Positions 9,095 through 34,895 of a stretch of 64,000 nt of DNA are shown in pieces. Below the pieces are notes generated by a model. That model saw nothing but the letters and a program-made list of their open reading frames with translations, was not told the DNA's origin and did not search any database. The stretch comes from Pseudomonadota bacterium (GTDB lineage: Bacteria > Pseudomonadota > Gammaproteobacteria > Burkholderiales > Rhodocyclaceae): the NCBI GenBank assembly GCA_039805865.1, contig JBDLTI010000003.1, positions 381 to 64,380 of the forward strand, in the 5' to 3' direction. Both the position numbers and the translations under genes were made by a program. Each line of letters opens with the position of its first letter. Position 1 is the stretch's first letter.

Positions 9095-10357
9095 TTGCGT
9101 TATTATGACTTTGTGCTAAAAAGTCGCAATAACAAACAGGATGTCACGACTTTGAACAAGCGAGACCTACATCCAGACCTGCAAGCGACCTGTGCGCCAA
9201 TATCCGGTCGCAATGGTTGCTTTGCGGTTGTGCCGCCACCCGCGCCGGCACAGCTCAACATTCCTGCTTGCTACGGCCTGATAGCAGCAGCTCAGAGCGA
9301 ATTACAAAACCTAGGCAATGCGATCAGTCGTAACCCGGCTCATGCAGACTTGCTCTTGCACATGCTTAACAGGCGTGAGGCCGTTGATAGCAGCCAACTA
9401 GAAGGCACCCAGACCGGGTTCGATGGCCTGCTATTGCATGAATTACAAGAAGAGACGGGGCAGCTGGAAACCAGAAATAAAGACGCACGTGAAACGTTGG
9501 GCTACCTCCGTGCCTATTTAGCGGGCGCCTCCGCCATTCAAATGCGCGGTCAAAAGGCGCTAAATACATCGTTGCTCTGCCAGATGCACAACATTTTGTT
9601 GAATGGTTTTGTCGAGAGCATGCCCGGCAAAATTCGGGATCGCCAGAACTATATCGGTATACGTCTAGAAACGGCCACATACATTCCGCCGCCAGCAGAG
9701 GCATTAACGCGATTATTAATCGACCTGACCGAGTTGCTCCAGTACCAGCCCGATGGAGTGATGGAGGTTTCGTTACTTCAACGGGCGGCCATCGCGCATG
9801 CGCAATTCGAGGCGATTCATCCGTTCCTCGATGGTAATGGCCGGGTAGGTAGATTGCTTCTGCCGCTGATGTTTCAAGCTGAAGGCTGGCCACCTATTCA
9901 TCTGGCCACTTTTTTAAAAGTGCGTAAGCAAGAATACTATGCAGCATTGTTAGCCGTTCAGACCAAACTAGATTGGCAACCTTGGTTGAGCTTGTTTCTA
10001 GAGTGTGTCATCGCATCATGCAAACACACCATTCAATTACTCGATCACCTTCATGGTTTAAGGAACCAATGGACCCAAAGGCTCACTGATGCCAAAAAGA
10101 GAAAGCATGCCGCGGTATGGCAACTGTTAGCGCTACTACTGGGTCAACCCGTTGTTACTGCTAACGAAATCGTAAAAAAAACAGGCATCTCGTATAGCAC
10201 GGCTAACCAATCAATTGTCGAGCTGGTTGCGCTGGATATTCTGCGGCCAGCTCAGACAGAGAGACAACGGGATCGTGCATTTCATGCACACGAAGTGATG
10301 AATATTCTTTACACAGGCCTAGATAAAGTGCTGGCACAGGTAGCAGCCCTTAAATAA
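9095..10357 (+). CDS. Fic/DOC family protein with N-terminal inhibitory motif and C-terminal HTH-like tail
   Basis: Catalytic motif HPFLDGNGRVGR and (S/T)xxxE(G/N) motif SSQLEG. Start uncertain (TTG at 9095 or 9152). Confidence 0.9.
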   Translation: MRYYDFVLKSRNNKQDVTTLNKRDLHPDLQATCAPISGRNGCFAVVPPPAPAQLNIPACYGLIAAAQSELQNLGNAISRNPAHADLLLHMLNRREAVDSSQLEGTQTGFDGLLLHELQEETGQLETRNKDARETLGYLRAYLAGASAIQMRGQKALNTSLLCQMHNILLNGFVESMPGKIRDRQNYIGIRLETATYIPPPAEALTRLLIDLTELLQYQPDGVMEVSLLQRAAIAHAQFEAIHPFLDGNGRVGRLLLPLMFQAEGWPPIHLATFLKVRKQEYYAALLAVQTKLDWQPWLSLFLECVIASCKHTIQLLDHLHGLRNQWTQRLTDAKKRKHAAVWQLLALLLGQPVVTANEIVKKTGISYSTANQSIVELVALDILRPAQTERQRDRAFHAHEVMNILYTGLDKVLAQVAALK

Positions 10358-10821: not shown

Positions 10822-10905
10822 GCCAGGAGCAGTTTCCAAGAAGCGCAGTATCATCTGGTGACACACTGACTGTTTCATAATCAGTAAAACAACTGGAACG
10901 CCCGA

Positions 10906-11886
10906 ATGGATCGCACCGAACGCTTCTACAAAATCCAGGATCTGCTCAAACAGCAGAAAAAGCTGACTATGAAGCGTCTGCAGGAAACGCTCAACGTTTC
11001 CCGTGCCACCCTATGCCGTGATCTGGATTACCTTCGCGATCGGCTCGGTGTTCCCATCGTCTGGGACGCAAAATCACGAGCCTATGTTCTTGAGAGCTTT
11101 TCAACAGACGCTGCAAGGCAGGAGCTCCCCGGTGTCTGGTTCAATGAATCCGAGATTCACGGTTTGCTGGGCATGATTGAAATCATCAACCAGATGCAGG
11201 CCGGCAGCACTCTGGTAGAACGGATGACTCCCCTGAAACAGCGGTTGGAGATTCTGCTGGAGCAGGGTACTGGCAGCGCCAGCGAGATCATGCAACGCAT
11301 CCGTATTCTGCCCATGGCCAGGCGGCCGGTAAGTGACGAACATTTCCAGTGGCTGGCAGATGCATTGGTCAAACGCCAGAGGGTGCGTATCCGGCACCTT
11401 AGCCGTAAGCGCAGCGAAACTGTCGAACGGGACATCTCTCCCCAACGGTTGGTCTACTACCGGGATAACTGGTACCTGGACGCCTACTGCCACCTGCGTG
11501 ATGATCTGCGAAGCTTTGCGCTGGACGCCATTGAAGCGGTATCCCTGCTTGATAATCCCGCGCTGACTGCCACCGATAAAGCCCTGGCCGAATACTACGA
11601 GCAGAGCTACGGCATATTCAACGGCAAAGCCAGTCACGTAGCCAGATTACGGTTCACCCCATTCAGAGCCCAGTGGGTTGCCAGAGAGATATGGCACCCC
11701 AAACAACGCGGAAGCTTCGAGCCGGACGGCTCGTACATCCTTGAAGTGCCCTACGGTAATGACACCGAATTACTCATGGACATTCTGAAACAGGGGCCGG
11801 AGGTCGAGGTTCTGGCACCGGACTCACTAAAACAGAAAACCCTCAACATCCTCGCTGCCACACAAGCAAAGTATCAATCATCATGA
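10906..11886 (+). CDS. WYL-domain transcriptional regulator (HTH_11-WYL-WCX, YafY/PafB-like)
   Basis: N-terminal wHTH (LNVSRATLCRDLDYLRD), WYL motif (NWYLDAYCHLRDDLRSFALD), WCX-type C-terminus (GPEVEVLAP). Confidence 0.93.
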   Translation: MDRTERFYKIQDLLKQQKKLTMKRLQETLNVSRATLCRDLDYLRDRLGVPIVWDAKSRAYVLESFSTDAARQELPGVWFNESEIHGLLGMIEIINQMQAGSTLVERMTPLKQRLEILLEQGTGSASEIMQRIRILPMARRPVSDEHFQWLADALVKRQRVRIRHLSRKRSETVERDISPQRLVYYRDNWYLDAYCHLRDDLRSFALDAIEAVSLLDNPALTATDKALAEYYEQSYGIFNGKASHVARLRFTPFRAQWVAREIWHPKQRGSFEPDGSYILEVPYGNDTELLMDILKQGPEVEVLAPDSLKQKTLNILAATQAKYQSS

Positions 11887-12131
11887 ACGACATCCGTAAC
11901 TGTGAATTCCGCTTCAAATGTCCCAAACAATGGGATGCCCTAAAGTCAACCGACAACCAAGACCAGCGCTTTTGCAGTGTGTGCAACCAGATCGTTTACT
12001 TCTGCCATACCGATAAAGAACTGTTGGCCGCTATCAAAGAAGATCGTTGCATCGCCATTAAAGTGACTAGTGCAAAAGATGAAGGCATACAAGTCGGCAT
12101 GCCGGCGCCTGAATACAATCGCAGAGGTTAA
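11883..12131 (+). CDS. Small Cys-rich hypothetical protein (putative metal-binding)
   Basis: 82 aa; ATGA overlap with the WYL stop; C7, C13, C31xxC34, C41-H42, C56. Confidence 0.75.
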   Translation: MNDIRNCEFRFKCPKQWDALKSTDNQDQRFCSVCNQIVYFCHTDKELLAAIKEDRCIAIKVTSAKDEGIQVGMPAPEYNRRG

Positions 12132-12136
12132 GAACC

Positions 12137-12670
12137 ATGGATTTCTGGCTCGAGCTACCTACCAAAAACTTTATTCAGGCCCTTAAAACCGTTAAGCCGC
12201 GCCTACGCAGTGTTGCCAAAAGAGCGGGTACGCTGGACATCAGCTTTATCAACGGGGAAGCTATCTTTTGTGTAGGCGGCGCCATGACCCGTGTTCATGC
12301 CCAAGGCCATTGGGCCGGTGTAGTTGAAACCCCGTTTCTAACGCTGTTATCGTTTATCCAGGTGCCACCGGCAGGCGATACCGTCAAACTGGAGTTTGAT
12401 GGCGACAAGTTCAAGATCGGTAGCTTCCGCTGTAAAGCCACCTGGCAAAACGTGAGCGACCAGATCACCGAGATCAAGAACGAAATTCACCTCAACGAGC
12501 TGGATAAAAAGGCCGAACTCAAAAAGCACTATTGCCCCAACTGTGGCACTAAAACCGGCATTCCACAGCCAGATGCACCCACCGACCTGTTTGAGGGGCT
12601 GAACTCCTCGCCAAAACCGATAACCCGGTATCAGTGCAGTAAGTGCAGGCTCGGTTGGCTTGAGCAATGA
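12137..12670 (+). CDS. Hypothetical protein: beta-clamp-like N-terminal domain (by eye) plus C-terminal CxxC...CxxC zinc ribbon
   Basis: 177 aa, GAGG SD upstream, CPNC(133-136) and CSKC(167-170). Domain call is inference. Confidence 0.75.
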   Translation: MDFWLELPTKNFIQALKTVKPRLRSVAKRAGTLDISFINGEAIFCVGGAMTRVHAQGHWAGVVETPFLTLLSFIQVPPAGDTVKLEFDGDKFKIGSFRCKATWQNVSDQITEIKNEIHLNELDKKAELKKHYCPNCGTKTGIPQPDAPTDLFEGLNSSPKPITRYQCSKCRLGWLEQ

Positions 12671-12773
12671 TCGTTTACGGTTGTCGAGAATAAGTAACCT
12701 ATTTGTTGAGCAATTGAACCAAAGAAAACATAAAATGTGAGCGTATATATTTGAACAAAGCGTTACACGCCAC

Positions 12774-15167
12774 ATGAACAAACCTATAAAGCAAGAACAA
12801 AGCAATTTAAAATGGATTGCAGACTTTATTTGGCGGATTGCCGATGATCGTCTGAAAGATGTCTATGTGCGGGGCAAATATCGCGATGTGATTCTCCCGT
12901 TTACCGTTTTGCGCCGCCTTGATGCTGTTCTTGAGCAAACCAAGCAGGCAGTGTTGGAACGAAAGAAGTTTCTGGACGCCCAAAAAATTGCCGAACAAGA
13001 TGGCGCCCTACGCATGGCTTCAGGTCAAGCGTTTTATAACACTTCAGATTTCACCCTCGCCACGCTTACGGCTAGTGGCAAAGGACAGCGCCTGCGCGAT
13101 AACTTCGTCAATTATCTGGATGGTTTCTCACCGAACGTTCAAGACATCCTTGCTAAATTCAAATTCCGCGATCAAATTCAAACAATGGTCGAGGCCGATA
13201 TTCTTGGCTATTTGATCGAAGACTTTCTTGATCGAGCCGTCAATCTCACGTCATTGCCAGTCTATGACGAAGATGGTCGTATCAAACTGCCGGCGTTAGA
13301 CAACCACGGCATGGGTACCGTGTTTGAGGAGTTGATCCGCCGCTTCAACGAAGAAAACAACGAAGAGGCCGGGGAACATTTCACGCCTCGTGACGTGGTT
13401 CAACTGATGGCCAAGCTGCTATTCATGCCGGTGGCCAATCAAATTCAATCCGGCACCTACCTTTTGTATGACGGCAGCTGCGGCACGGGTGGCATGCTCA
13501 CTGTAGCTGAAGAAGCGCTGCACGATCTGGCCGCAACACACGACAAGGAAGTCTCAATTCACCTTTTCGGCCAGGAGATTAACCCCGAGACCTACGCTAT
13601 TTGTAAAGCAGACCTGTTGCTTAAAGGTGAGGGCGACGAGGCTGAAAACATCGTCGGCGGTGCTGATAAGTCCACGCTTTCTGCCGATGCCTTTAAAGCC
13701 CATGAATTCGACTTCATGATTTCTAATCCGCCCTACGGCAAGAGCTGGAAGACCGACCTCGACCGAATGGGCGGCAAGAAAGAGTTTGGTGATCCACGCT
13801 TCATTGTTAACCATGACGGCGATCCTGAATTCAAACTCATTACCCGTTCCAGTGATGGGCAGCTGATGTTCCTGGTGAATAAGCTGCAGAAGATGAAGCA
13901 CAAAACACCACTCGGCAGCCGCATCGCACTGGTTCATAACGGTTCCGCGCTTTTCACAGGTGATGCAGGGCAGGGTGAGAGTAACATCCGTCGTTGGGTG
14001 CTGGAGAACGATTGGCTCGAAGCCATTATTGCCTTGCCACTCAATATATTTTACAACACTGGTATTGCTACTTACATCTGGGTGCTGGCTAATAAAAAGG
14101 CTGAAAACCGTAGTGGCAAGGTACAGCTGATTGACGCAACGCAGTGGTTCCAGCCGATGCGTCGCAACCTTGGCAAGAAAAACTGCGAACTGGCCGATGC
14201 AGACATTGAACTCATTATGATGCATTACCTTGATCAGCCAGCCGTTGACGAAAAGGAAGCCAAGGCGACGCCCGAGTGCAAATGGTTTGATAACGCCGAC
14301 TTTGGTTATTGGAAGATTACGGTAGAACGACCGCTACGTCTGAAAAGCCAACTAAAGCGACACGCCATCGAAAGCCTGCGTTTTGCTTCTGGTGACGAGG
14401 CTCTACGCACTGAGATCTACGCAAAGCACGGCGACGAGCTGTACACGGAATTTGCCAAGCTCAAACCAGAAATTGAGGCATGGCTCAAAGCTGACGAAGG
14501 CGATGAAGATGCTGACGACGAGTCGGATGACGAAGACGCCAAGACCACCAAGAAGGCCGTACCAGAGAAAAGGCGTAAAAAACTGCTCGACCCTGCAACC
14601 TGGCTACGGGACAAAACCCTATTAGAAGTGGCAAAGCTCGCACAGAAAGTGCTGGGCGAAGTTCTGTTCAACGATCACAATGAGTTCCGCGCGCGATTAG
14701 AGGCTATGCTCAAGGAGCACAACAAGAAGCTGGGCGCAGCCGAGAAGAAGACTATTTACAAGGCCGTAAGCTGGCGCGACGAATCTGCGCCTCCCGTTGT
14801 TGCCAAGCGCAGCAAGCTCAAAGCGAGCGAATCTTTCGACCCCGTTTACGACGGCTCGTACCTAGAAACCGTTGGAAAAGATCGCTTTAGAGTGGAATAC
14901 GAGGCTGATACGGATTTGCGCGATACTGAGCAGGTGCCGCTCAAGGAAACCGGGGGCATTGAAGCCTTCTTCGTTCGTGAGGTGCTGCCCCACACACCCG
15001 ATGCGTGGATTGCGATGGACAACACCAAGATTGGCTATGAGATCTCATTTGCACGATACTTCTACAAGCCAACCCCTTTGCGTACCCTTGAACAGATTCG
15101 CGCAGATATCCTCAAGCTAGAGCAGCAGACCGAGGGCTTGCTGCACAAGATCGTGGGGGCGGTGTGA
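12774..15167 (+). CDS. hsdM: Type I R-M modification subunit (m6A methyltransferase)
   Basis: EAGEHFTPRDVV, SAM-binding YDGSCGTGGML, catalytic NPPY, FYNTGIATYIW. Confidence 0.96.
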   Translation: MNKPIKQEQSNLKWIADFIWRIADDRLKDVYVRGKYRDVILPFTVLRRLDAVLEQTKQAVLERKKFLDAQKIAEQDGALRMASGQAFYNTSDFTLATLTASGKGQRLRDNFVNYLDGFSPNVQDILAKFKFRDQIQTMVEADILGYLIEDFLDRAVNLTSLPVYDEDGRIKLPALDNHGMGTVFEELIRRFNEENNEEAGEHFTPRDVVQLMAKLLFMPVANQIQSGTYLLYDGSCGTGGMLTVAEEALHDLAATHDKEVSIHLFGQEINPETYAICKADLLLKGEGDEAENIVGGADKSTLSADAFKAHEFDFMISNPPYGKSWKTDLDRMGGKKEFGDPRFIVNHDGDPEFKLITRSSDGQLMFLVNKLQKMKHKTPLGSRIALVHNGSALFTGDAGQGESNIRRWVLENDWLEAIIALPLNIFYNTGIATYIWVLANKKAENRSGKVQLIDATQWFQPMRRNLGKKNCELADADIELIMMHYLDQPAVDEKEAKATPECKWFDNADFGYWKITVERPLRLKSQLKRHAIESLRFASGDEALRTEIYAKHGDELYTEFAKLKPEIEAWLKADEGDEDADDESDDEDAKTTKKAVPEKRRKKLLDPATWLRDKTLLEVAKLAQKVLGEVLFNDHNEFRARLEAMLKEHNKKLGAAEKKTIYKAVSWRDESAPPVVAKRSKLKASESFDPVYDGSYLETVGKDRFRVEYEADTDLRDTEQVPLKETGGIEAFFVREVLPHTPDAWIAMDNTKIGYEISFARYFYKPTPLRTLEQIRADILKLEQQTEGLLHKIVGAV

Positions 15168-16588
15168 AGGCTGGCGTGAATCCTTACCCCGGCTACAGAA
15201 AAACGCGAATGCGCTGGCTACCGGCTGTGCCGGAACACTGGAATGAGCAACGCGCCAAAACGTTCTTCCGCGAGGTTGATGAACGCTCGAAGACCGGACT
15301 GGAAGAGCTACTGTCTGTATCTCATCTCACGGGAGTTACACCGCGTAACCAGAAAAAAGTTACGATGTTCAAAGCCGCCAGCTACGTGGGATCTAAACTT
15401 TGCCAGCCCGGCGATATAGTCATCAACACACTCTGGGCATGGATGGCAGCGCTTGGTGCGAGCAGGTACATCGGAATCGTCAGTCCGGCTTATGGTGTGT
15501 ATCGGCCGCATCGCGCCGACTTTTTTAATCCGGCATATCTTGATTACTTGTTGCGCACCCGTCCCTATGTTGCCGAATATATTGGGCGCTCGACCGGCAT
15601 TCAATCCTCGCGCCTGCGTCTGTATCCAAACCAGTTTCTTGATATAGAGCTGCTGCAACCGCCGCGCCCGGAACAAGACAAGATTGTTGTGTACCTGCGG
15701 GTACAGGATGCCCACATAGCCCGTTTCATCAAGGCCAAGCGTGATCTTATCGGTTTGCTTACCGAGCAGAAGCTGTGCATTATCGACCATGCAGTGACGA
15801 GAGGGCTGGATGCATCTGTCGCTCTGAAGCATTCTGGTGTTGAATGGTTGGGGGGTGTCCCCAAACACTGGCAGGTTGGCCTTCTCAAGCATGTCGCTAT
15901 GGTGCGCTTCAGCGGCGTGGACAAGCACTCTCACGCTGATGAAACACCTGTTCGCCTGTGCAACTACACAGATGTCTACAAGAATGATTGCATCACGGGT
16001 GACATGGACCTGATGCAAGCCACAGCTAATGCGGCTGAAATTGCCCGCTTCACACTGAAAGCGGGCGACGTGATCCTCACGAAGGACTCGGAATCGCCGG
16101 ACGACATCGGCGTACCCGCTTGGGTTCCGGAAGATCTGCCCGGCGTGGTCTGCGCCTATCACCTTGGTTTGCTAAGACCCGATTCGGAGCGGGTACTGGG
16201 TGAGTTTCTGTTTCGTGCCATTGGTTCAGCGCGCATAGCGCAGCAGTTTCATGTTCTCGCCACTGGCGTTACTCGCTTCGCACTCAGCAAGCACGATGTA
16301 AAAAATGCTGTCATTGCATTGCCTCCTATCGAAGAACAACAAGCTATCTGCAAGTGGATCGATGACGAGTGCAAACCGCTCGAAGGCGCCATCCAGCGTG
16401 CAGTTGAGGAAATCAAGCTGATCCGTGAGTACCGCGATCGGTTAATTGCTGATGTCGTCACCGGCCAAGTGGATGTGCGAGGCTGGGTACAGGGGCCGGG
16501 CGATCTAGTGACAGACGAAGATCTGGCAGCTTTGGGCGGTGATGAGAACATAGAATCCGAAGAGGAGGTAGGCGATGTCGACGACTGA
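15164..16588 (+). CDS. hsdS: Type I R-M specificity subunit
   Basis: Two TRDs with repeated conserved spacers (WLPAVPEHW / WLGGVPKHW; PPRPEQDKIV / PPIEEQQAIC). GTG start overlaps the hsdM stop. Confidence 0.95.
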   Translation: MKAGVNPYPGYRKTRMRWLPAVPEHWNEQRAKTFFREVDERSKTGLEELLSVSHLTGVTPRNQKKVTMFKAASYVGSKLCQPGDIVINTLWAWMAALGASRYIGIVSPAYGVYRPHRADFFNPAYLDYLLRTRPYVAEYIGRSTGIQSSRLRLYPNQFLDIELLQPPRPEQDKIVVYLRVQDAHIARFIKAKRDLIGLLTEQKLCIIDHAVTRGLDASVALKHSGVEWLGGVPKHWQVGLLKHVAMVRFSGVDKHSHADETPVRLCNYTDVYKNDCITGDMDLMQATANAAEIARFTLKAGDVILTKDSESPDDIGVPAWVPEDLPGVVCAYHLGLLRPDSERVLGEFLFRAIGSARIAQQFHVLATGVTRFALSKHDVKNAVIALPPIEEQQAICKWIDDECKPLEGAIQRAVEEIKLIREYRDRLIADVVTGQVDVRGWVQGPGDLVTDEDLAALGGDENIESEEEVGDVDD

Positions 16589-19500
16589 TACAAGTGAGAA
16601 GGGTCTGGAGACACTAATCGTTCGGCATTTGACCGGCGAAAACGAGCCAGCGCCGTCCCTGACCTCTAAAGATATCGTGCCTTGGCCTCAGCAGGTGTGG
16701 CGTACTAGTGGGCTTGCCCCGTATGCCGTAGGCGGCTATACCCAGGGTAAACCGACAAACTACAACCGTGACGTAGCGCTTGACGTAGTGCAGCTATTGG
16801 CTTTCCTGCAAGATACACAGCCGGAAGCTGTTAATACACTGGAACTAGTTAGTGAAGGCATCAAGTGCACGCAATTTCTACACCGTGTCCAAGGCGAAAT
16901 CGCCAAACGTGGGGTAGTGGATGTGTTGCGCAAGGGTGTCAGCCATGGACCGTTGCACGTCGACTTGTACAAGTTGCTACCAACGCCGGGTAATGCCAGT
17001 GCTGCTGAAAACTTCGGCAAGAATATATTCAGCGTTACTCGCCAGTTGCGTTACAGCAACGACGAATCGCAACGGTCGCTGGACATGGCGATCTTTATCA
17101 ATGGGTTGCCGGTGCTGACCTTCGAGCTGAAAAACTCGCTCACCAAGCAGACTGTTGCTGATGCCGTAACGCAATACCAGACTGACCGCAATCCAAATGA
17201 ATTGTTGTTCCAGCTGGGTCGATGCGTAGCGCATATCGCTCTTGACGATGCAGAGGTGCGGTTCTGTACGCACCTTACAGGTAAGACATCGTGGTTTCTG
17301 CCATTTAACCAGGGGTGGTGCCATGGCGCGGGAAATCCACCCAACCCACTTGGTTTGAAAACTGACTATCTTTGGAAGCAGGTGCTGCTGAAGGAATCGT
17401 TGGCAAATATCATCGAGAACTTCACACAGGTGGTTGAGGAAGAAGACGAAAAGGGTAGAAAACGACGGAAACAGATCTTCCCGCGCTTTCATCAATTACG
17501 TACCGTGCGTGCACTGTTACGCCGCGTCAGTGAAGACGGTGTTGGCAAGCGTTATTTGGTTCAACACTCGGCGGGTAGCGGTAAGAGCAACACGATTGCT
17601 TGGCTCGCACATCAATTGGTTGAGCTTAAGAGCATAGCCGACCCAATGAAGGCGCAGTTCGATTCAATTATTGTCATTACGGATCGCCGGGCATTAGATA
17701 CCCAGATTGCCAGGACGATTAAGAGCTACGACCATGTTGCCTCTATTTTTGGCCATTCTGAGGATGCTGCCGAGTTACGTACCTTCTTACATAAAGGTAA
17801 GAAGATCATTGTTACAACTGTACAGAAATTCCCCTTCATTCTCGATGAACTTGGCGACCTAAGCGGTAAAAATTTTGCGCTGTTGATTGATGAAGCGCAC
17901 TCTAGTCAGGGCGGCAAGACTACGGCGAAGATGCACATGGCACTTTCTGGCAATATCAGCGCTGATTCTGTTGATGATGAGACCGAAGAGGAATCTGTTG
18001 AGGATGCCGTCAATAGGATGATTGAGTCGCGCAAGATGTTGCCCAATGCCAGCTACTTTGCCTTCACAGCCACTCCCAAGAATCGCACATTGGAATTGTT
18101 TGGTGAACGATATGTTGAAGGAAGTAATGTTCACTTTCGTTCACCCGAGGAACTAACCTACACCACGAAGCAAGCGATTCAGGAAGGGTTTATTCTTGAC
18201 GTGATTGCAAACTACACGCCCGTGGAAAGCTTCTACCACGTAGCGAAGACGGTAGAGGACGATCCGAATTTTGACAAAGTAAAGGCGCTAAAGAAGATCC
18301 GACATTACGTTGAATCTCACGATAAGGCCATCCGGAAGAAGGCCGAAATCATGGTCGACCATTTCATGGCGCAGGTGGCAGGCAAACAAAAGATTGGTGG
18401 TAAGGCGCGAGGAATGGTCGTTTGTAATGGGATCGCGCGAGCTATTGATTATTACCATGAAATAACTGATTACCTTGCTTCGATAAAAAGTCCTTACAAG
18501 GCTATTGTTGCCTATTCGGGCGATTTTGAAATTGGTGGCGTGAAGAAGACTGAGGCAGATCTCAATGGGTTCCCGAGCAAAGATATACCGGCTAAGCTGA
18601 AAATAGATCCTTATCGTTTTTTGATTGTTGCCAATAAGTTTGTTACAGGCTTCGATGAACCGCTACTACACACGATGTATGTGGATAAGCCTTTGGCAGG
18701 GGTTCTGGCGGTCCAAACCCTTTCACGCCTGAACCGTGCACACCCGCAGAAGCGTGATACTTTTGTACTAGACTTTGCAGATAACGCTGAGGCAGTAAAG
18801 CTTGCTTTCCAAGACTATTACCGAGCCACTATTCAAACCGGTGAAACAGATCCTAATAAGCTACACGATCTGAAAAATGACCTCGACGCAAAGCAAGTGT
18901 ATAGCAGTCAGCAACTCGAAGATTTGGTGATGCTTTACGTCTCTGGCGCAGAGCGGGACAAGCTTGACCCTATTCTCGATCTTTGTGTTGCCGAATATAT
19001 CGAAAAACTTAATGAAGATGATCAAGTTGAGTTTAAAGGCAAGGCCAAGAGCTTTGTGCGTAGCTATAACTTTCTCGCTGCAATCCTGACATATGGCCAA
19101 CCAGCCTGGGAAAAACTTGCAATCTTCTTAAATTTCTTGATTCCAAAACTGCCGGCTCCGAAGGAAGAAGACCTTTCTAGGGGTGTGCTGGAAGCCATCG
19201 ATATGGATAGCTACAGGGTCGACGCACGAGCATCGTTACGGTTGTCGATGGATGATGTGGATGGTTTTGTCGAACCGCCTCCGACGGGTGGCGGTGGCCG
19301 TGGTTCGGCTGAAATCGACAAGCTTTCAAACATCATAAAAGCCTTTAACGACTTGTTTGGCAACATCGAGTGGAAAGACGGCGATAAGATCCGGAAGGTT
19401 ATTACTGAAGAGATACCTGAACGGGTGGCGCAAGACAAGGCCTACCAGAATGCTCAGGCCAATTCCGACAAGCAAAACGCCAAGCTGGAACACGACAAAG

Positions 19501-19658
19501 CGCTGAATCGTGTAGTGCTTGAATTTCTATCTGATCACACAGAGTTGTTCAAGCAGTTTAGTGATAACCCCAATTTCAAGCGCTGGTTAACGGACACGGT
19601 CTTTGACGTAACCTATCGGCCTAATGATCTAGATAGCAGACCTCCAAGCCACATTTGA
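16575..19658 (+). CDS. hsdR: Type I R-M restriction subunit
   Basis: Nuclease motif DMAIFINGLPVLTFELK, Walker A HSAGSGKS, DEAH box, AFTATP, TGFDEP, QTLSRLNR. Confidence 0.96.
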   Translation: MSTTDTSEKGLETLIVRHLTGENEPAPSLTSKDIVPWPQQVWRTSGLAPYAVGGYTQGKPTNYNRDVALDVVQLLAFLQDTQPEAVNTLELVSEGIKCTQFLHRVQGEIAKRGVVDVLRKGVSHGPLHVDLYKLLPTPGNASAAENFGKNIFSVTRQLRYSNDESQRSLDMAIFINGLPVLTFELKNSLTKQTVADAVTQYQTDRNPNELLFQLGRCVAHIALDDAEVRFCTHLTGKTSWFLPFNQGWCHGAGNPPNPLGLKTDYLWKQVLLKESLANIIENFTQVVEEEDEKGRKRRKQIFPRFHQLRTVRALLRRVSEDGVGKRYLVQHSAGSGKSNTIAWLAHQLVELKSIADPMKAQFDSIIVITDRRALDTQIARTIKSYDHVASIFGHSEDAAELRTFLHKGKKIIVTTVQKFPFILDELGDLSGKNFALLIDEAHSSQGGKTTAKMHMALSGNISADSVDDETEEESVEDAVNRMIESRKMLPNASYFAFTATPKNRTLELFGERYVEGSNVHFRSPEELTYTTKQAIQEGFILDVIANYTPVESFYHVAKTVEDDPNFDKVKALKKIRHYVESHDKAIRKKAEIMVDHFMAQVAGKQKIGGKARGMVVCNGIARAIDYYHEITDYLASIKSPYKAIVAYSGDFEIGGVKKTEADLNGFPSKDIPAKLKIDPYRFLIVANKFVTGFDEPLLHTMYVDKPLAGVLAVQTLSRLNRAHPQKRDTFVLDFADNAEAVKLAFQDYYRATIQTGETDPNKLHDLKNDLDAKQVYSSQQLEDLVMLYVSGAERDKLDPILDLCVAEYIEKLNEDDQVEFKGKAKSFVRSYNFLAAILTYGQPAWEKLAIFLNFLIPKLPAPKEEDLSRGVLEAIDMDSYRVDARASLRLSMDDVDGFVEPPPTGGGGRGSAEIDKLSNIIKAFNDLFGNIEWKDGDKIRKVITEEIPERVAQDKAYQNAQANSDKQNAKLEHDKALNRVVLEFLSDHTELFKQFSDNPNFKRWLTDTVFDVTYRPNDLDSRPPSHI

Positions 19659-19734
19659 TCTTATATACATAGAACCTTGGCGTTGCCAAACTGTGCGTCA
19701 TCGGATGAGAGACTGGAGCTTTTAGAATTGGCCT

Positions 19735-20196
19735 ATGAACACTAAACCTCTGATGATTAGCTTCGATTGCCAGGAAGAGGGCATCCTGGTGCTGCCCTTT
19801 GGTCGGGACGAAGATTTTGAAGTTCACTTTTTTATTACAGAGAATGGCATCAACTACAACGGTGACTGGTTGCCGGTAAACATCAGCGATTTAGCGGCTG
19901 AGGTGATGAAGCAAGTGCCACAGGGCTCACTCTATGAGCGTATGGCTGATGCGGTAAGTGTTGGGTTTCTCTTCGCGAGTCACGGGCAGCCAGATGTGAT
20001 GGAACAGCTGCGAAAGTATTGTCTTGAAGATGCGTGTGTTGAAGAGATCGAAGCCTGGCAGCAATGTCATGCGGTGGCGGAGAAGCTCGACCACTATAAA
20101 CCGGCTTCGGGTAGCGGTTATTGCCTAGAGGATGAAGACATTATCAAGGATGACAGTTACCGCTTGCTCATGGAGAAGTATGGGGTAGCGTACTAA
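19735..20196 (+). CDS. Hypothetical acidic protein
   Basis: 153-aa ORF filling the gap after hsdR; by hand count 29 D/E versus 11 K/R; no recognised family. Confidence 0.7.
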   Translation: MNTKPLMISFDCQEEGILVLPFGRDEDFEVHFFITENGINYNGDWLPVNISDLAAEVMKQVPQGSLYERMADAVSVGFLFASHGQPDVMEQLRKYCLEDACVEEIEAWQQCHAVAEKLDHYKPASGSGYCLEDEDIIKDDSYRLLMEKYGVAY

Positions 20197-20287
20197 GTAT
20201 CAGCTTCAGGGTCGTCAGCTAGCTGTGTCATCTGGCGAGGTAACGCGGCGAGTGTCTGTCCTAGTCGTCGCCCCTAATATTTATGCG
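20190..20287 (+). repeat. Degenerate attC-like imperfect inverted repeat
   Basis: Upstream stop codon lies in an R''-like site (ACTAAG), then a 5-bp spacer and L''-like GCTTCAGG. Arms 20208-20222 and 20261-20275 match at 11/15 positions; TTATGCG remnant of R'. Confidence 0.4.
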
Positions 20288-20447
20288 CAGCCGTCGAAGA
20301 GATGATTCATGGATTTCATCGAAAGAATTAGCCGCATTACGGAAGTATGGTGCGGATTTGTTGAATCTGACTGAAGCCCAGTTAGATAGAGCAATTGTAG
20401 AAGGTGCATTAGTGGAGATCTGTCATGACCAAGACTGCCAAGCGTAA
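20283..20447 (+). pseudogene. C-terminal remnant of a RelE/HigB-type toxin
   Basis: Translates ...ISSKELAALRKYGADLLNLTEAQLDRAIVEGALVEICHDQDCQA*, a typical RelE-like toxin C-terminus that overlaps the antitoxin start. The N-terminal part is missing. Confidence 0.7.
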
Positions 20448-20754
20448 ACCTCAAAGCCCTATCATGTCTGCCGTACATGAGGGGGCTTTAGATTTGCACC
20501 GACTAGGCTTTATCGATAAGCGCAAGATGCAGGAATATGATGCACTTTGTCTGGAGCCCATCCCCGATTATGATTGCGATCAAATCAGAAACCTGCGCAC
20601 CCGATTAAACCTTAGTCAGCCAGTATTCGCAGCTGTGTTGAATACCACGCTGTCTACCGTGGTTCAGTGGGAAGGTGGCAAAAAGCACCCGCGAGGCACA
20701 TCGCTCAAGTTGCTGAACCTGGTTGATCGCAAAGGGTTGGAAGCCGTTCTTTAG
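20425..20754 (+). CDS. XRE-family HTH antitoxin (HigA-like)
   Basis: SAVHEGALDLHRLGFID...MQEYDALCL, LSQPVFAAVLN, QWEGGKKHPRGTSLKLL. Confidence 0.9.
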   Translation: MTKTAKRKPQSPIMSAVHEGALDLHRLGFIDKRKMQEYDALCLEPIPDYDCDQIRNLRTRLNLSQPVFAAVLNTTLSTVVQWEGGKKHPRGTSLKLLNLVDRKGLEAVL

Positions 20755-32798: not shown

Positions 32799-34895
32799 AT
32801 GACCAACGATTCTGCTTCAATTTCCGAACTTGCTTCAGTTTCTGCATCCAAGGTGGTGACCTTTGATGGCAGTCCATTTCGCCTGCATCAGCCGTTTCCA
32901 CCTGCCGGAGATCAGCCGGTTGCCATTGAACAACTGATGTCGGGTTTGGAAGATGGTCTTTCCTTCCAGACCTTGCTGGGCGTAACTGGCTCTGGAAAAA
33001 CCTACACCATGGCCAATGTGATCGCCCGTAGCGGCCGTCCTGCCCTGGTATTGGCACCGAATAAGACATTGGCTGCGCAGCTTTACGCGGAGTTCAAGGA
33101 GTTCTTCCCGGAAAATGCCGTTGAATACTTCGTCTCTTATTACGACTATTATCAGCCCGAGGCCTATGTGCCGAGCCGGGATCTGTTCATTGAAAAGGAC
33201 TCATCAATTAATGAACATATTGAACAGATGCGCCTTTCTGCAACCAAAAGTCTTATAGAACGTAGTGACTGCATTATTGTTGCCACGGTTTCTTGTATCT
33301 ACGGTATTGGTGATCGTGATGAGTATCATCAGATGATCATGCATGTTCGGGAGGGCGATAAGCTCGCACAGCGCGATTTACTCAAACGACTGGCCGAGAT
33401 GCAGTACAGCCGTAATGAGATGGATTTCCAGCGCGGCACCTTCCGCGTTCGCGGTGATGTGATTGATGTGTTTCCGGCAGAGCATGCTGAGCATGCCTTA
33501 CGAATTGAGCTCTTTGACGATGAAATCGAGCGGCTTCAACTGTTTGATCCGCTTACGGGTGAAATCAGACAAAGACTGTCCCGTTTTACGGTCTATCCAT
33601 CGAGTCATTACGTCACGCCGCGTGCAACGGTATTGCGTGCGCTAGAAGGCATTAAGGAAGAGCTTAATGTGCAACGTGCAGCCTTTCTTTCAGAGGCCAA
33701 GCTGGTAGAAGCGCAACGTCTTGAACAAAGGACGAAGTTCGATATCGAAATGCTGAACGAAGTGGGCTTCTGCAAGGGGATTGAAAACTATTCGCGCCAT
33801 CTTTCTGGCCGTAATCCGGGTGATCCCCCCCCAACGCTGATTGATTACCTGCCCGACAATGCGTTGATTTTTATCGATGAATCTCATGTAGCGATCGGGC
33901 AGGTGGGTGCCATGTACAAGGGCGACCGGTCGCGTAAAGAAAACCTGGTGAATTATGGTTTCCGTTTGCCATCTGCACTGGATAACCGACCACTTAAATT
34001 TGATGAATTCGAACAGCGGATGCGCCAGGCGGTATTTGTATCAGCCACGCCGGCTGCCTATGAAAAGGAACATGCCGGCCAGGTTGTAGAGCAGGTGGTT
34101 CGGCCAACAGGGCTTGTGGATCCACTGGTTGAAGTCAGACCCGCAACCACTCAGGTTGACGATTTGCTCGGCGAAATACGTAAACGTGTCGCTCTTGATG
34201 AACGTATCCTTGTAACAACGCTGACGAAGCGCATGTCCGAAGATTTGACGGACTATCTTACTGAAAACGGCATCAAGGTACGATATCTGCACTCGGATAT
34301 TGATACGGTTGAACGCGTGGAGATCATTCGCGATCTTCGTTTGGGCGTATTTAATGTGGTGGTGGGTATTAACCTGTTGCGTGAAGGTCTGGATATTCCC
34401 GAGGTGTCGCTGGTCGCGATCCTAGATGCTGATAAGGAAGGTTTTCTGCGTTCTGAAACCTCGTTGATTCAAACGATTGGTCGTGCAGCGCGTCATTTGA
34501 ATGGTTCCGCCATCCTTTATGCAGACAAGATCACCGGGTCAATGCGCCGTGCGATAGATGAAACGGAACGCCGCCGACAAAAGCAACTCGCGTTTAATGC
34601 AGAACACGGCATTGTGCCGCGGGGCGTTCAGAAGCGGATTAAAGATATCATTGATGGTGTTTACACCACAGGCTATTCGGATTCAACAGATGCTCAATCT
34701 ATGCGCAAGGCTGCGCAGACACGTAAACGTTATGAATCGATGTCTGAAAAAGAAGTAGCTGCCGAAATCCGTAAGCTGGAGCAGGCCATGCAACAGCACG
34801 CCAAAAACCTCGAGTTTGAGGCGGCAGCACAGACTCGTGATCAGCTGTTCCGACTGAAGGAGCAATTGTTCGGCGCCGCACCCAAAGGGGATTAA
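32799..34895 (+). CDS. uvrB: Excinuclease ABC subunit B
   Basis: [23 protein letters not shown]-terminal UVR coiled coil. Confidence 0.98.

Follow-up and report, generated by a model that had tools for sequence, protein, structure and literature searches.

A WYL-headed gene cassette precedes diverse restriction-type operons: a candidate ssDNA-responsive control element

Introduction

WYL-domain regulators head bacterial defence loci and respond to single-stranded DNA (ssDNA) and to restricted infection (PMC9122601, PMC11662680, PMC13622015). Here, we analyze a 64,000-nt stretch of a Rhodocyclaceae genome (contig JBDLTI010000003.1; hereafter, the window), in which a WYL regulator gene and two small genes, termed g2 and g3, directly precede a type I restriction-modification (R-M) operon. 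We show that the three genes belong to a cassette that recurs in front of at least ten different restriction-type cargos, and lean, with modest conviction, towards the view that it is a portable control element.

In loci of the BrxR/daWYL type (PMC9122601, PMC9122589, PMC13622015), which include those of BrxR from E. fergusonii pEFER and from Acinetobacter, as in the window, a regulator composed of winged helix-turn-helix (wHTH), WYL, and WCX domains is encoded by the first gene, is co-oriented with the defence locus, and has a palindrome in its own promoter. The cue is ssDNA or restricted infection, and the cargo described so far comprises BREX, type I, III, and IV restriction, and mosaic islands. 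The window locus differs in its operator, which lies over a missing -35 element, whereas the R-box of BrxR is located downstream of the -10 element. It also differs in that two or three conserved non-regulator genes separate the regulator from the cargo, an arrangement that is undescribed in these three reports.

DriD of Caulobacter and PafBC of Actinobacteria are ssDNA-activated WYL activators of LexA-independent DNA damage regulons (PMC13004042, PMC10853764). The DriD target site overlaps the position of an absent -35 element, and its spacing to the -10 element does not vary (PMC13004042). The regulator studied here resembles DriD in being a predicted homodimer with a palindromic target fixed with respect to the -10 element, no -35 element being present. 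The link to a LexA-independent regulon is also shared: recA appears to be under the control of a paralogue encoded elsewhere in this genome, and LexA was not detected in the genus. The regulator of the window, unlike DriD and PafBC, is island-borne, sporadic, and tied to restriction cargo rather than to repair genes, and its action as an activator is putative. Finally, C proteins and RptR (PMC12255303) resemble the cassette as a whole, being small regulatory units located 5' of R-M genes and thought to time or tune restriction. Both belong to unrelated protein families, however, and C proteins are short HTH_3 proteins that each serve one R-M system, whereas the cassette serves many types.

Results

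The cassette and its position in front of a type I R-M operon

The borders of the cassette were set at positions 10844-12670 of the window, and all of its genes lie on the forward strand. The open reading frame (ORF) of the WYL regulator (10906-11886) codes for a 326-aa wHTH-WYL-WCX transcription factor of the PafBC/DriD-like kind; g2 (11883-12131) codes for an 82-aa protein that belongs to no described family, and g3 (12137-12670) for a 177-aa protein with a clamp-like N-terminus, a helix, and a C4 zinc ribbon. The raw sequence and the ORF list show that the TGA codon of the WYL gene overlaps the ATG of g2 (ATGA). The g3 gene starts 5 nt past the g2 stop codon, with an AGAGG sequence 9 nt ahead of its ATG, and hsdM starts at 12774, on the same strand and 103 nt beyond the g3 stop codon. 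The spacer between g3 and hsdM (12671-12773, forward strand) is AT-rich (36% GC), and no terminator-like hairpin was found either on the forward strand between 10300 and 13000 or in a separate scan of the spacer. The coordinates, the ATGA overlap, the 5-nt gap with a Shine-Dalgarno sequence, the 103-nt gap, the lack of an obvious terminator, and the presence of multiple cysteines in both small proteins had all been noticed in an earlier, sequence-only reading of the window, and were confirmed here. An 18-mer, CCAAAGAAAACATAAAAT, located at 12718-12735 within the spacer, is common to homologous type I loci, and the spacer possibly contains a promoter of hsdM's own.

The R-M cargo occupies positions 12774-19658 of the forward strand and consists of hsdM (12774-15167), hsdS (15164-16588), and hsdR (16575-19658), which form one operon with overlapping stop and start codons at 15164/15167 and 16575/16588. 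The identity of the genes is supported by matches to the PADLOC MTase_I model (2.9e-255), TIGR00497, and TIGR00348 (1e-61). At the nucleotide level, hsdMSR is ~76% identical to the type I cargo that stands behind the same cassette in loci L010/L011.

A cassette recurring in front of different cargos

The cassette was found in 13 locus groups, with at least ten different restriction-type cargos behind it. In blastn comparisons with loci that carry a different cargo, homology extends from position 10844, 62 nt before the ATG of the WYL gene, to 12645-12659; the borders are sharp, and the right one coincides with the extreme 3' end of g3. Purifying selection acts on all three genes: the ratio of nonsynonymous to synonymous substitution rates (dN/dS) is 0.05-0.21 for the regulator, with synonymous sites often saturated, and, relative to the window copy, 0.11-0.15 for g2 and 0.05-0.10 for g3 (dN 0.08-0.14). 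Since they also recur together in many independent loci, the WYL-g2-g3 arrangement is not due to chance. The sequence-only reading would have been contradicted had the three genes failed to co-occur elsewhere, which is not the case.

The simple WYL-g2-g3 version of the window, with its type I hsdMSR cargo, is also present in L010/L011, where it precedes a type I system with RhuM, and in another genome of the same genus (G007), where it precedes type III Mod and Res genes. Most other cassettes contain an additional gene, missing from the window, for a protein of 254-262 aa. The WYL-262-g2-g3 version is followed by T5orf172 and a type I system in L037, by a Dcm/McrBC-like set (Vsr, Dcm, an AAA-like protein, and DUF2357/PDDEXK_7) in L007, and by two unassigned genes and two N6/N4 methyltransferases (MTases) in L001/2; in L026, where g2 is an uncalled ORF, the cargo consists of two Dcm genes and a type ISP gene. 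Remnants of g2 are left in L024/25 (WYL-257-g3, followed by HTH_17, SNF2, and GmrSD) and in L035/36 (WYL-258-g3, with g3 truncated to 118 aa and a type III-like cargo). L003 (WYL-254-g3) and L004/5 (WYL-DUF3293-262-g3) have no g2, and both carry MmeI/Eco57I-like MTases, a T5orf172 helicase, and GmrSD, a IIG-like set; L006 (WYL-DUF3293-262-g3) carries three unassigned genes. In L013, g2-g3 is followed by a DISARM-like cargo of HTH_17, a DrmD-like SNF2 protein (9e-189), a type III-like MTase, and a helicase.

In all 13 groups, the cargo lies on the same strand as the cassette, as is the case for defence systems headed by BrxR and CapW, and begins at distances ranging from an 11-nt overlap to 272 nt past g3. 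No terminator-like hairpin was detected in 10 of 11 g3-cargo spacers. A link between the cassette and restriction, suggested earlier from the window alone, is thus borne out in its physical and directional aspects, although the link is to at least ten cargos and is not specific to type I systems. The left flanks of the cassette are of at least five different kinds (an outer membrane protein (OMP) beta-barrel gene, cupin/Fic/tRNA-Val, an M78 peptidase region, Hachiman, and others), which implies that cassette and cargo move as one unit. The cassette itself is mosaic, judging by unequal divergence from the same partner: relative to L024, dS is 0.30 for the WYL gene and 1.12 for g3. Within the genus, the cassette is present in 2 of 19 genomes.

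The 254-262-aa gene lies between WYL and g2/g3, at positions 6975-7763 of L001 and equivalently in L003, L004, L007, L024, L026, and L037. Its product contains the motifs EHLSFRLGNQLFFI, GHAC, and GPEWVVVR; the 262-aa protein has no match in Pfam, NCBIfam, PHROGs, or PADLOC (hereafter, the four family databases), and a profile search of the PDB was also empty. Two unrelated loci, L026 (9928-10742) and contig C31 of genome G000, have another gene pair in common; it lies at the far end of the R-M cargo and codes for an acidic-tailed 213/233-aa protein (motif INWADSGPGFSWPEAYYLVW) and a 58/64-aa protein.

The regulator and its promoter

All three domains of the wHTH-WYL-WCX class are present in the regulator: Pfam matches were obtained to HTH_11 (6.6e-8, residues 9-52), WYL (1.9e-20, residues 145-212), and WCX (2.2e-14, residues 244-317), and the PADLOC WYL model matched with 8.8e-37. 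Among proteins of the PDB, the best sequence match was to PafBC (2.5e-17), followed by DriD (1.4e-9) and PafC (~1e-9). The similarity to CapW (4e-4) and BrxR (7e-4) is marginal in comparison, and the matches span the WYL domain alone. The sequence-only reading had placed the protein in the ssDNA-sensing WYL class, an assignment that both the domain composition and the best PDB matches support; BrxR and CapW, which it named as the leading examples, are less similar to the regulator than PafBC and DriD.

A 17-bp near-perfect palindrome, GTATCATCTGGTGACAC, occupies positions 10848-10864 of the forward strand and is a putative operator of the island regulator. It is kept in every cassette locus for which upstream sequence is available and is the sole zero-mismatch match to the palindrome consensus in the 2.0-Mb genome. 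A -10 hexamer, CATAAT (10876-10881, forward strand), invariant across the cassette alignments, follows 14 nt past the palindrome core and 11 nt past the 17-bp palindrome. By inspection, no -35 hexamer is present at a spacing of 16-18 nt from CATAAT (at most 1 of 6 positions matches TTGACA), and a sigma-70 scan did not report a complete promoter at this place. The palindrome, being upstream of the -10 element, occupies the -35 position. In seven loci, a -10 element is found at an equal distance on the opposite strand of the palindrome, serving a divergent neighbour gene.

A second operator-like palindrome accompanied by a -10-like TAGAAT was found beyond hsdR, at 19695-19728 of the forward strand. 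Its core, TCATCGGATGA (19698-19708), is separated from TAGAAT (19723-19728) by the same 14 nt as at the WYL promoter, and the two promoters agree at 21 of 31 positions. By our estimate, a core and a -10 element at 14-nt spacing would be expected ~0.01-0.02 times per window. TAGAAT lies 6 nt ahead of the ATG of an orphan gene (19735-20196, forward strand) coding for a 153-aa acidic protein (pI 4.3), a distance that suggests a leaderless transcript. The acidic orphan, which has no family in the four databases, is a probable second target of WYL-type control, and could be a damage-induced protein of the anti-restriction-like kind. A paralogue, 85% identical, is encoded on contig C47 (2156-2704), ~0.9 kb downstream of a palindrome of the host type described below. 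No second WYL operator was found between g3 and hsdM, and a palindrome match at 33323, within a UvrB-like coding region, was dismissed as chance. In locus L016 (genome G007), two perfect island-type palindromes (18089-18105 region and 18703-18719) are located beyond the type III cargo. One of them, accompanied by a -10-like CTAAAAT, immediately precedes a minus-strand gene for tRNA-Thr(TGT) (18605-18680).

The site over an absent -35 element at the WYL promoter, and the fixed 14 nt between core and -10 element at both sites of the window, are as in promoters controlled by DriD and PafBC, and the WYL promoter has the geometry of an activator-dependent one. Neither close sequence kinship to the repressors BrxR and CapW nor an operator placed as theirs to block RNA polymerase was seen. 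Given the DriD-like promoter architecture, and PafBC and DriD as the best solved relatives, we favour an ssDNA-activated activator over a repressor; the alternative is a repressor that would occlude the -35 region. The proposed ligand, ssDNA, is that known from the WYL family (PMC11662680, PMC10853764).

The g2 and g3 proteins

The six cysteines of g2 (C7, C13, C31, C34, C41, and C56) are invariant in 13 clusters of close homologues with 56-94% identity, and the protein presumably binds zinc. Searches of the four family databases and a PDB profile search gave no match to g2. An AlphaFold2 model with a predicted local distance difference test score (pLDDT) of 65 had no fold match, with noise only in Foldseek. 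In a sample of 400 genomes of the class, a single relative of g2 was found (G189), which stands alone, without a WYL neighbour.

The g3 protein also has six cysteines, four of which (C133, C136, C167, and C170) form the zinc ribbon. Close homologues fall into 35 clusters with 62-90% identity, in which the four ribbon cysteines, W59, and G61 are invariant and the C-terminal tail is variable; the ribbon cysteines are kept even in relatives with ~25% identity. A profile search of 1.8 billion representative sequences (cut-off E<=1e-3) defined a wider family of 101 clusters, mostly of 180-200 aa, with the same two-part layout. The four family databases contain no match to g3. Its AlphaFold2 model is of low confidence (pLDDT 59.8) and shows a beta-alpha-beta-beta-beta topology, occurring twice over approximately the first 100-105 residues. 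When the model was compared to the PDB with Foldseek, the top 50 matches were all bacterial DnaN clamps, over ~100-110 aligned columns and with E-values from 6e-3; in a viral library, gp45 and DnaN clamps led the list. At the sequence level, the g3 profile weakly matches (E 5e-5) domain I of a dnaN product from another genome, encoded between dnaA and recF. The resemblance to DnaN and phage gp45 is one of fold, in a low-confidence model, joined by the weak profile match to DnaN. DnaN has three domains, whereas g3 has one clamp-like domain of ~105 aa, no match to Pfam DNA_pol3_beta, and an added ribbon, and nothing points to a ring.

The ribbon motif of g3, CPxCG...(Y)xCxxCxHxW, matches the TFS/TFIIS-type ribbon 1qyp (1.6e-4), a C4 ribbon like those of TFIIS, TFS, and Rpb9, with a longer loop between the cysteine pairs in g3; Pfam TFIIS_C was not reported. 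We know of no use of TFIIS-type factors by bacteria. Taken together, the modelled fold and the motif describe g3 as a predicted single clamp-like domain followed by a helix and a zinc ribbon, and not as a member of the DnaN family.

Within the genus, g3 is found in 2 of 19 genomes. No full-length g3 was detected in the 400-genome class sample, and tblastn searches of 72,556 plasmids and 50,697 phage records gave no match; neither did a search of the plasmids with the remote g3 homologue P0078. A close-alignment search of genome contigs for related loci yielded no confirmed relative, and domain fusions of remote g3 relatives were uninformative. One remote relative (~26% identity) is encoded in locus L022 (8001-9671), flanked by a DUF932 gene and a divergently oriented MerR gene and near AddAB-like helicase-nuclease genes; this locus suggests that the wider g3 family is associated with mobile elements and is not tied to WYL or R-M genes. 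In L035 (9001-9357) and L036 (6728-7084), g3 is truncated to 118 aa and retains the clamp-like domain only, the ribbon having been removed at the junction with the cargo, and a type III Mod gene starts 7 nt downstream. The truncated form was found on at least 24 contigs, so that it is stable in a population.

WYL genes and palindromes of the host

The genome contains three WYL genes. One of them, located on the chromosome (C1:15121-16110), codes for a protein that shares 48% identity with the island regulator along its entire length and has an almost identical recognition helix. This chromosomal gene is core in the genus, being present in 16 of 18 other genomes with 89-93% identity. None of the 19 genomes that represent the genus, near-complete ones included, yielded a LexA DNA-binding domain above the Pfam cut-off; the domain is present in 5 of 6 sister genera.

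A 23-bp palindrome, AGAGGCTCAYCTGGTGAGACTCT, with the core TCAYC-N-GRTGA as in the island operator, occurs five times in the genome, at C1:1252-1268, C4:57505, C17:2562, C31:4171, and C47:1231. The C1 site lies between recA and a divergent gene for a UvrD/Rep-like helicase. The others precede an MmeI-like R-M and Mrr locus, an HTH and Dcm locus, a gene for a 409-aa protein, and the operon that holds the 85%-identical paralogue of the acidic orphan. Exact copies of AGAGGCTCAYCTGGTGAGACTCT are present in 16 of the 19 genomes, and a reversed control pattern was found in none. Judged by these sequence relationships, the island regulator looks like a diverged copy of a master regulator of the DNA damage response of the genus, and the genus is a candidate for a WYL-based replacement of the SOS regulator. 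The paralogy with a host regulator linked to recA supports ssDNA or DNA damage as the probable cue for the island regulator.

The third WYL gene, on the minus strand of contig C74 (2185-4937), codes for a 338-aa protein unrelated to the island regulator. Directly upstream is a gene for a 151-aa protein with a g2-like cysteine domain (BLASTP 6e-10, hidden Markov model 7.5e-9), and the WYL gene is followed by a gene for a 409-aa coiled-coil protein with an NYN/PIN-like C-terminus. This unit hints that the pairing of a WYL regulator with a small zinc protein recurs.

The accessory island

The cassette is part of an accessory island that adjoins a tRNA-Val gene and consists of a SoFic-like Fic gene, a cupin gene, the cassette, hsdMSR, the acidic orphan, and a RelE fragment with an HTH gene, in this order. 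The cassette begins 23 nt past the unrelated cupin gene. At the start of the island (9095-10357), directly after the tRNA-Val gene, is the gene of a SoFic-like Fic/DOC protein with a C-terminal wHTH (PADLOC SoFic 1e-82). At its distal end (20283-20754), a 54-aa C-terminal fragment of RelE overlaps a 109-aa HTH_3/MqsA-like gene, the two being a degraded or atypical toxin-antitoxin (TA) module.

Discussion

Our preferred explanation, which we hold to be probable, if not by much, is that the 10844-12670 segment is a portable, WYL-headed control and expression cassette for restriction-type defence operons that responds to ssDNA. A dimer of the WYL protein would bind the palindrome overlapping the -35 position. 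Upon contact of the WYL domain with ssDNA, arising from damage or from the processing of restricted phage or self DNA, transcription of WYL-g2-g3 would be switched on and, with no terminator on the way, would continue into the co-oriented cargo, hsdMSR in the window. Such read-through, which we infer from the co-orientation, the short gaps, and the lack of terminators, would add to the output of any constitutive promoter of the cargo, while a second, weaker site would drive the acidic orphan after hsdR. The proteins g2 and g3 are most likely non-enzymatic partners associated with nucleic acid or a polymerase. In the sequence-only reading, they had been taken for novel defence effectors; they contain no enzymatic domain, however, and their constancy in front of varying restriction cargo is the behaviour expected of accessory or leader genes. 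That reading had also held the combination to be undescribed. This applies to the companion genes, on which nothing specific was found in the literature (neither clamp-like nor zinc-ribbon partners of WYL regulators), and does not apply to a WYL gene heading a defence or R-M locus, which is known from BrxR (PMC9122601) and daWYL (PMC13622015). What is new is the g2 and g3 companions; the link between regulator and defence is not. The cassette can be seen as a variation on the BrxR/daWYL theme, set apart by its DriD-like activator layout and by two or three conserved companions.

Several observations weigh against this explanation. An inducible promoter alone cannot sustain an R-M system. The cargo must therefore have one of its own as well, and candidates are present within g3 (12324-12353) and in the spacer. 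The choice between activator and repressor draws solely on promoter geometry and sequence similarity. Some cassettes do without g2 or the 262-aa gene, the zinc ribbon of g3 is lost in L035/36, and an island-type WYL gene in G016 has neither g2 nor g3 behind it. The g2 relative of G189 stands alone, and remote relatives of g3 occur without WYL or R-M neighbours. Finally, the explanation gives g2 and g3 no specific biochemical role.

Such a role is central to a different account, possible but in our opinion improbable, in which the purpose of the cassette lies in g2 and g3 themselves, optionally joined by the 262-aa protein, acting as a damage-induced governor of restriction or as a processivity or anti-termination factor for long, foreign, AT-rich operons. 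They might alleviate restriction and protect the host while repair makes unmodified DNA, or the TFIIS-type ribbon might reach RNA polymerase while the clamp-like domain holds DNA. In keeping with this, g3 equals the regulator in strength of conservation, is the sole accessory gene found in every cassette, and is always the last gene before the cargo. The identifiable cargos all cut or modify DNA, many of them being translocases, the g3-cargo spacers are free of terminators, and the predicted fold and the ribbon of g3 may point to contacts with DNA or RNA polymerase. A WYL-type promoter also precedes the orphan after hsdR, whose acidity recalls DNA-mimic anti-restriction proteins. Set against this, the four family databases revealed no homology to Lar, Ral, Ard, Ocr, NusG, RfaH, or Gre/DksA factors, a single factor would need to work on enzymes of widely differing mechanism, modification-dependent ones included, the models are of low confidence (pLDDT 60-65), and one widespread g3 variant (L035/36) has no ribbon. 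The idea of Lar/Ral-type restriction alleviation by zinc ribbons was dropped, there being no Pfam Lar match. In its fullest form, which we regard as a rather unlikely proposal, g3 and g2 would be a portable, damage-induced governor, switched on by a DriD-like activator, that either protects host DNA from the downstream system or carries RNA polymerase through the operon, a universal adaptor making any restriction system safe and inducible in a new host and, in a genus with no detected LexA, plugging acquired defence into a WYL damage regulon.

The cassette could instead be no more than conserved sequence bordering a defence hot spot, or part of a mobile-element backbone, where homologous recombination between conserved flanks swaps cargo, with WYL-g2-g3 serving an unrelated function such as the response to DNA damage. 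To the left, a divergent OMP beta-barrel gene and small genes recur in several loci; to the right, some loci have recurring genes such as those for an ADP-ribosylglycohydrolase and an FRG-domain protein. Junctions fall at or within the 3' end of g3, WYL and g3 have mosaic histories (dS 0.3-0.5 vs 1.1-2.4), L001 is near a relaxase gene, and remote g3 relatives adjoin DUF932, MerR, or UvrD-like genes and not R-M genes. We nevertheless consider a mere flank quite unlikely: with at least five left flanks, the cassette travels with its cargo, co-orientation in 13 of 13 groups would have a probability of ~0.001 or less for unlinked neighbours, the genes are separated by short, terminator-free gaps or overlap, and no cassette with a clearly non-defence cargo was found. 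TA modules are common beside BrxR-type regulators (PMC9122601), and small, tightly coupled genes in a defence island under a damage-type promoter could be viewed as a TA or abortive infection pair, making g2 and g3 an independent small defence system under WYL control. This appears very improbable. The four family databases gave no TA, abortive infection, toxin, antitoxin, or PADLOC defence match, and no nuclease, membrane, or NAD-related domain is present; several cassettes have retained g3 without g2, and the truncated form of g3 is accompanied by a degraded g2. Since g2 is dispensable, the two genes are not an obligate pair.

WYL regulators are emerging as a general switch of bacterial immunity, and have so far been described as lone regulators. 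In the control cassette proposed here, the regulator travels with two or three uncharacterized proteins under strong purifying selection, and one front end serves ten or more kinds of restriction system. This suggests that a transcription factor is not all that is required, or useful, for controlling restriction inducibly. The gene set is compact and clean to test. If g3 is indeed a single-domain relative of sliding clamps, it would be of structural and evolutionary interest. More broadly, the locus links acquired defence to an apparent WYL-based replacement of the SOS regulator in a genus with no detected LexA, and bears on how restriction may be kept from harming the host during repair.

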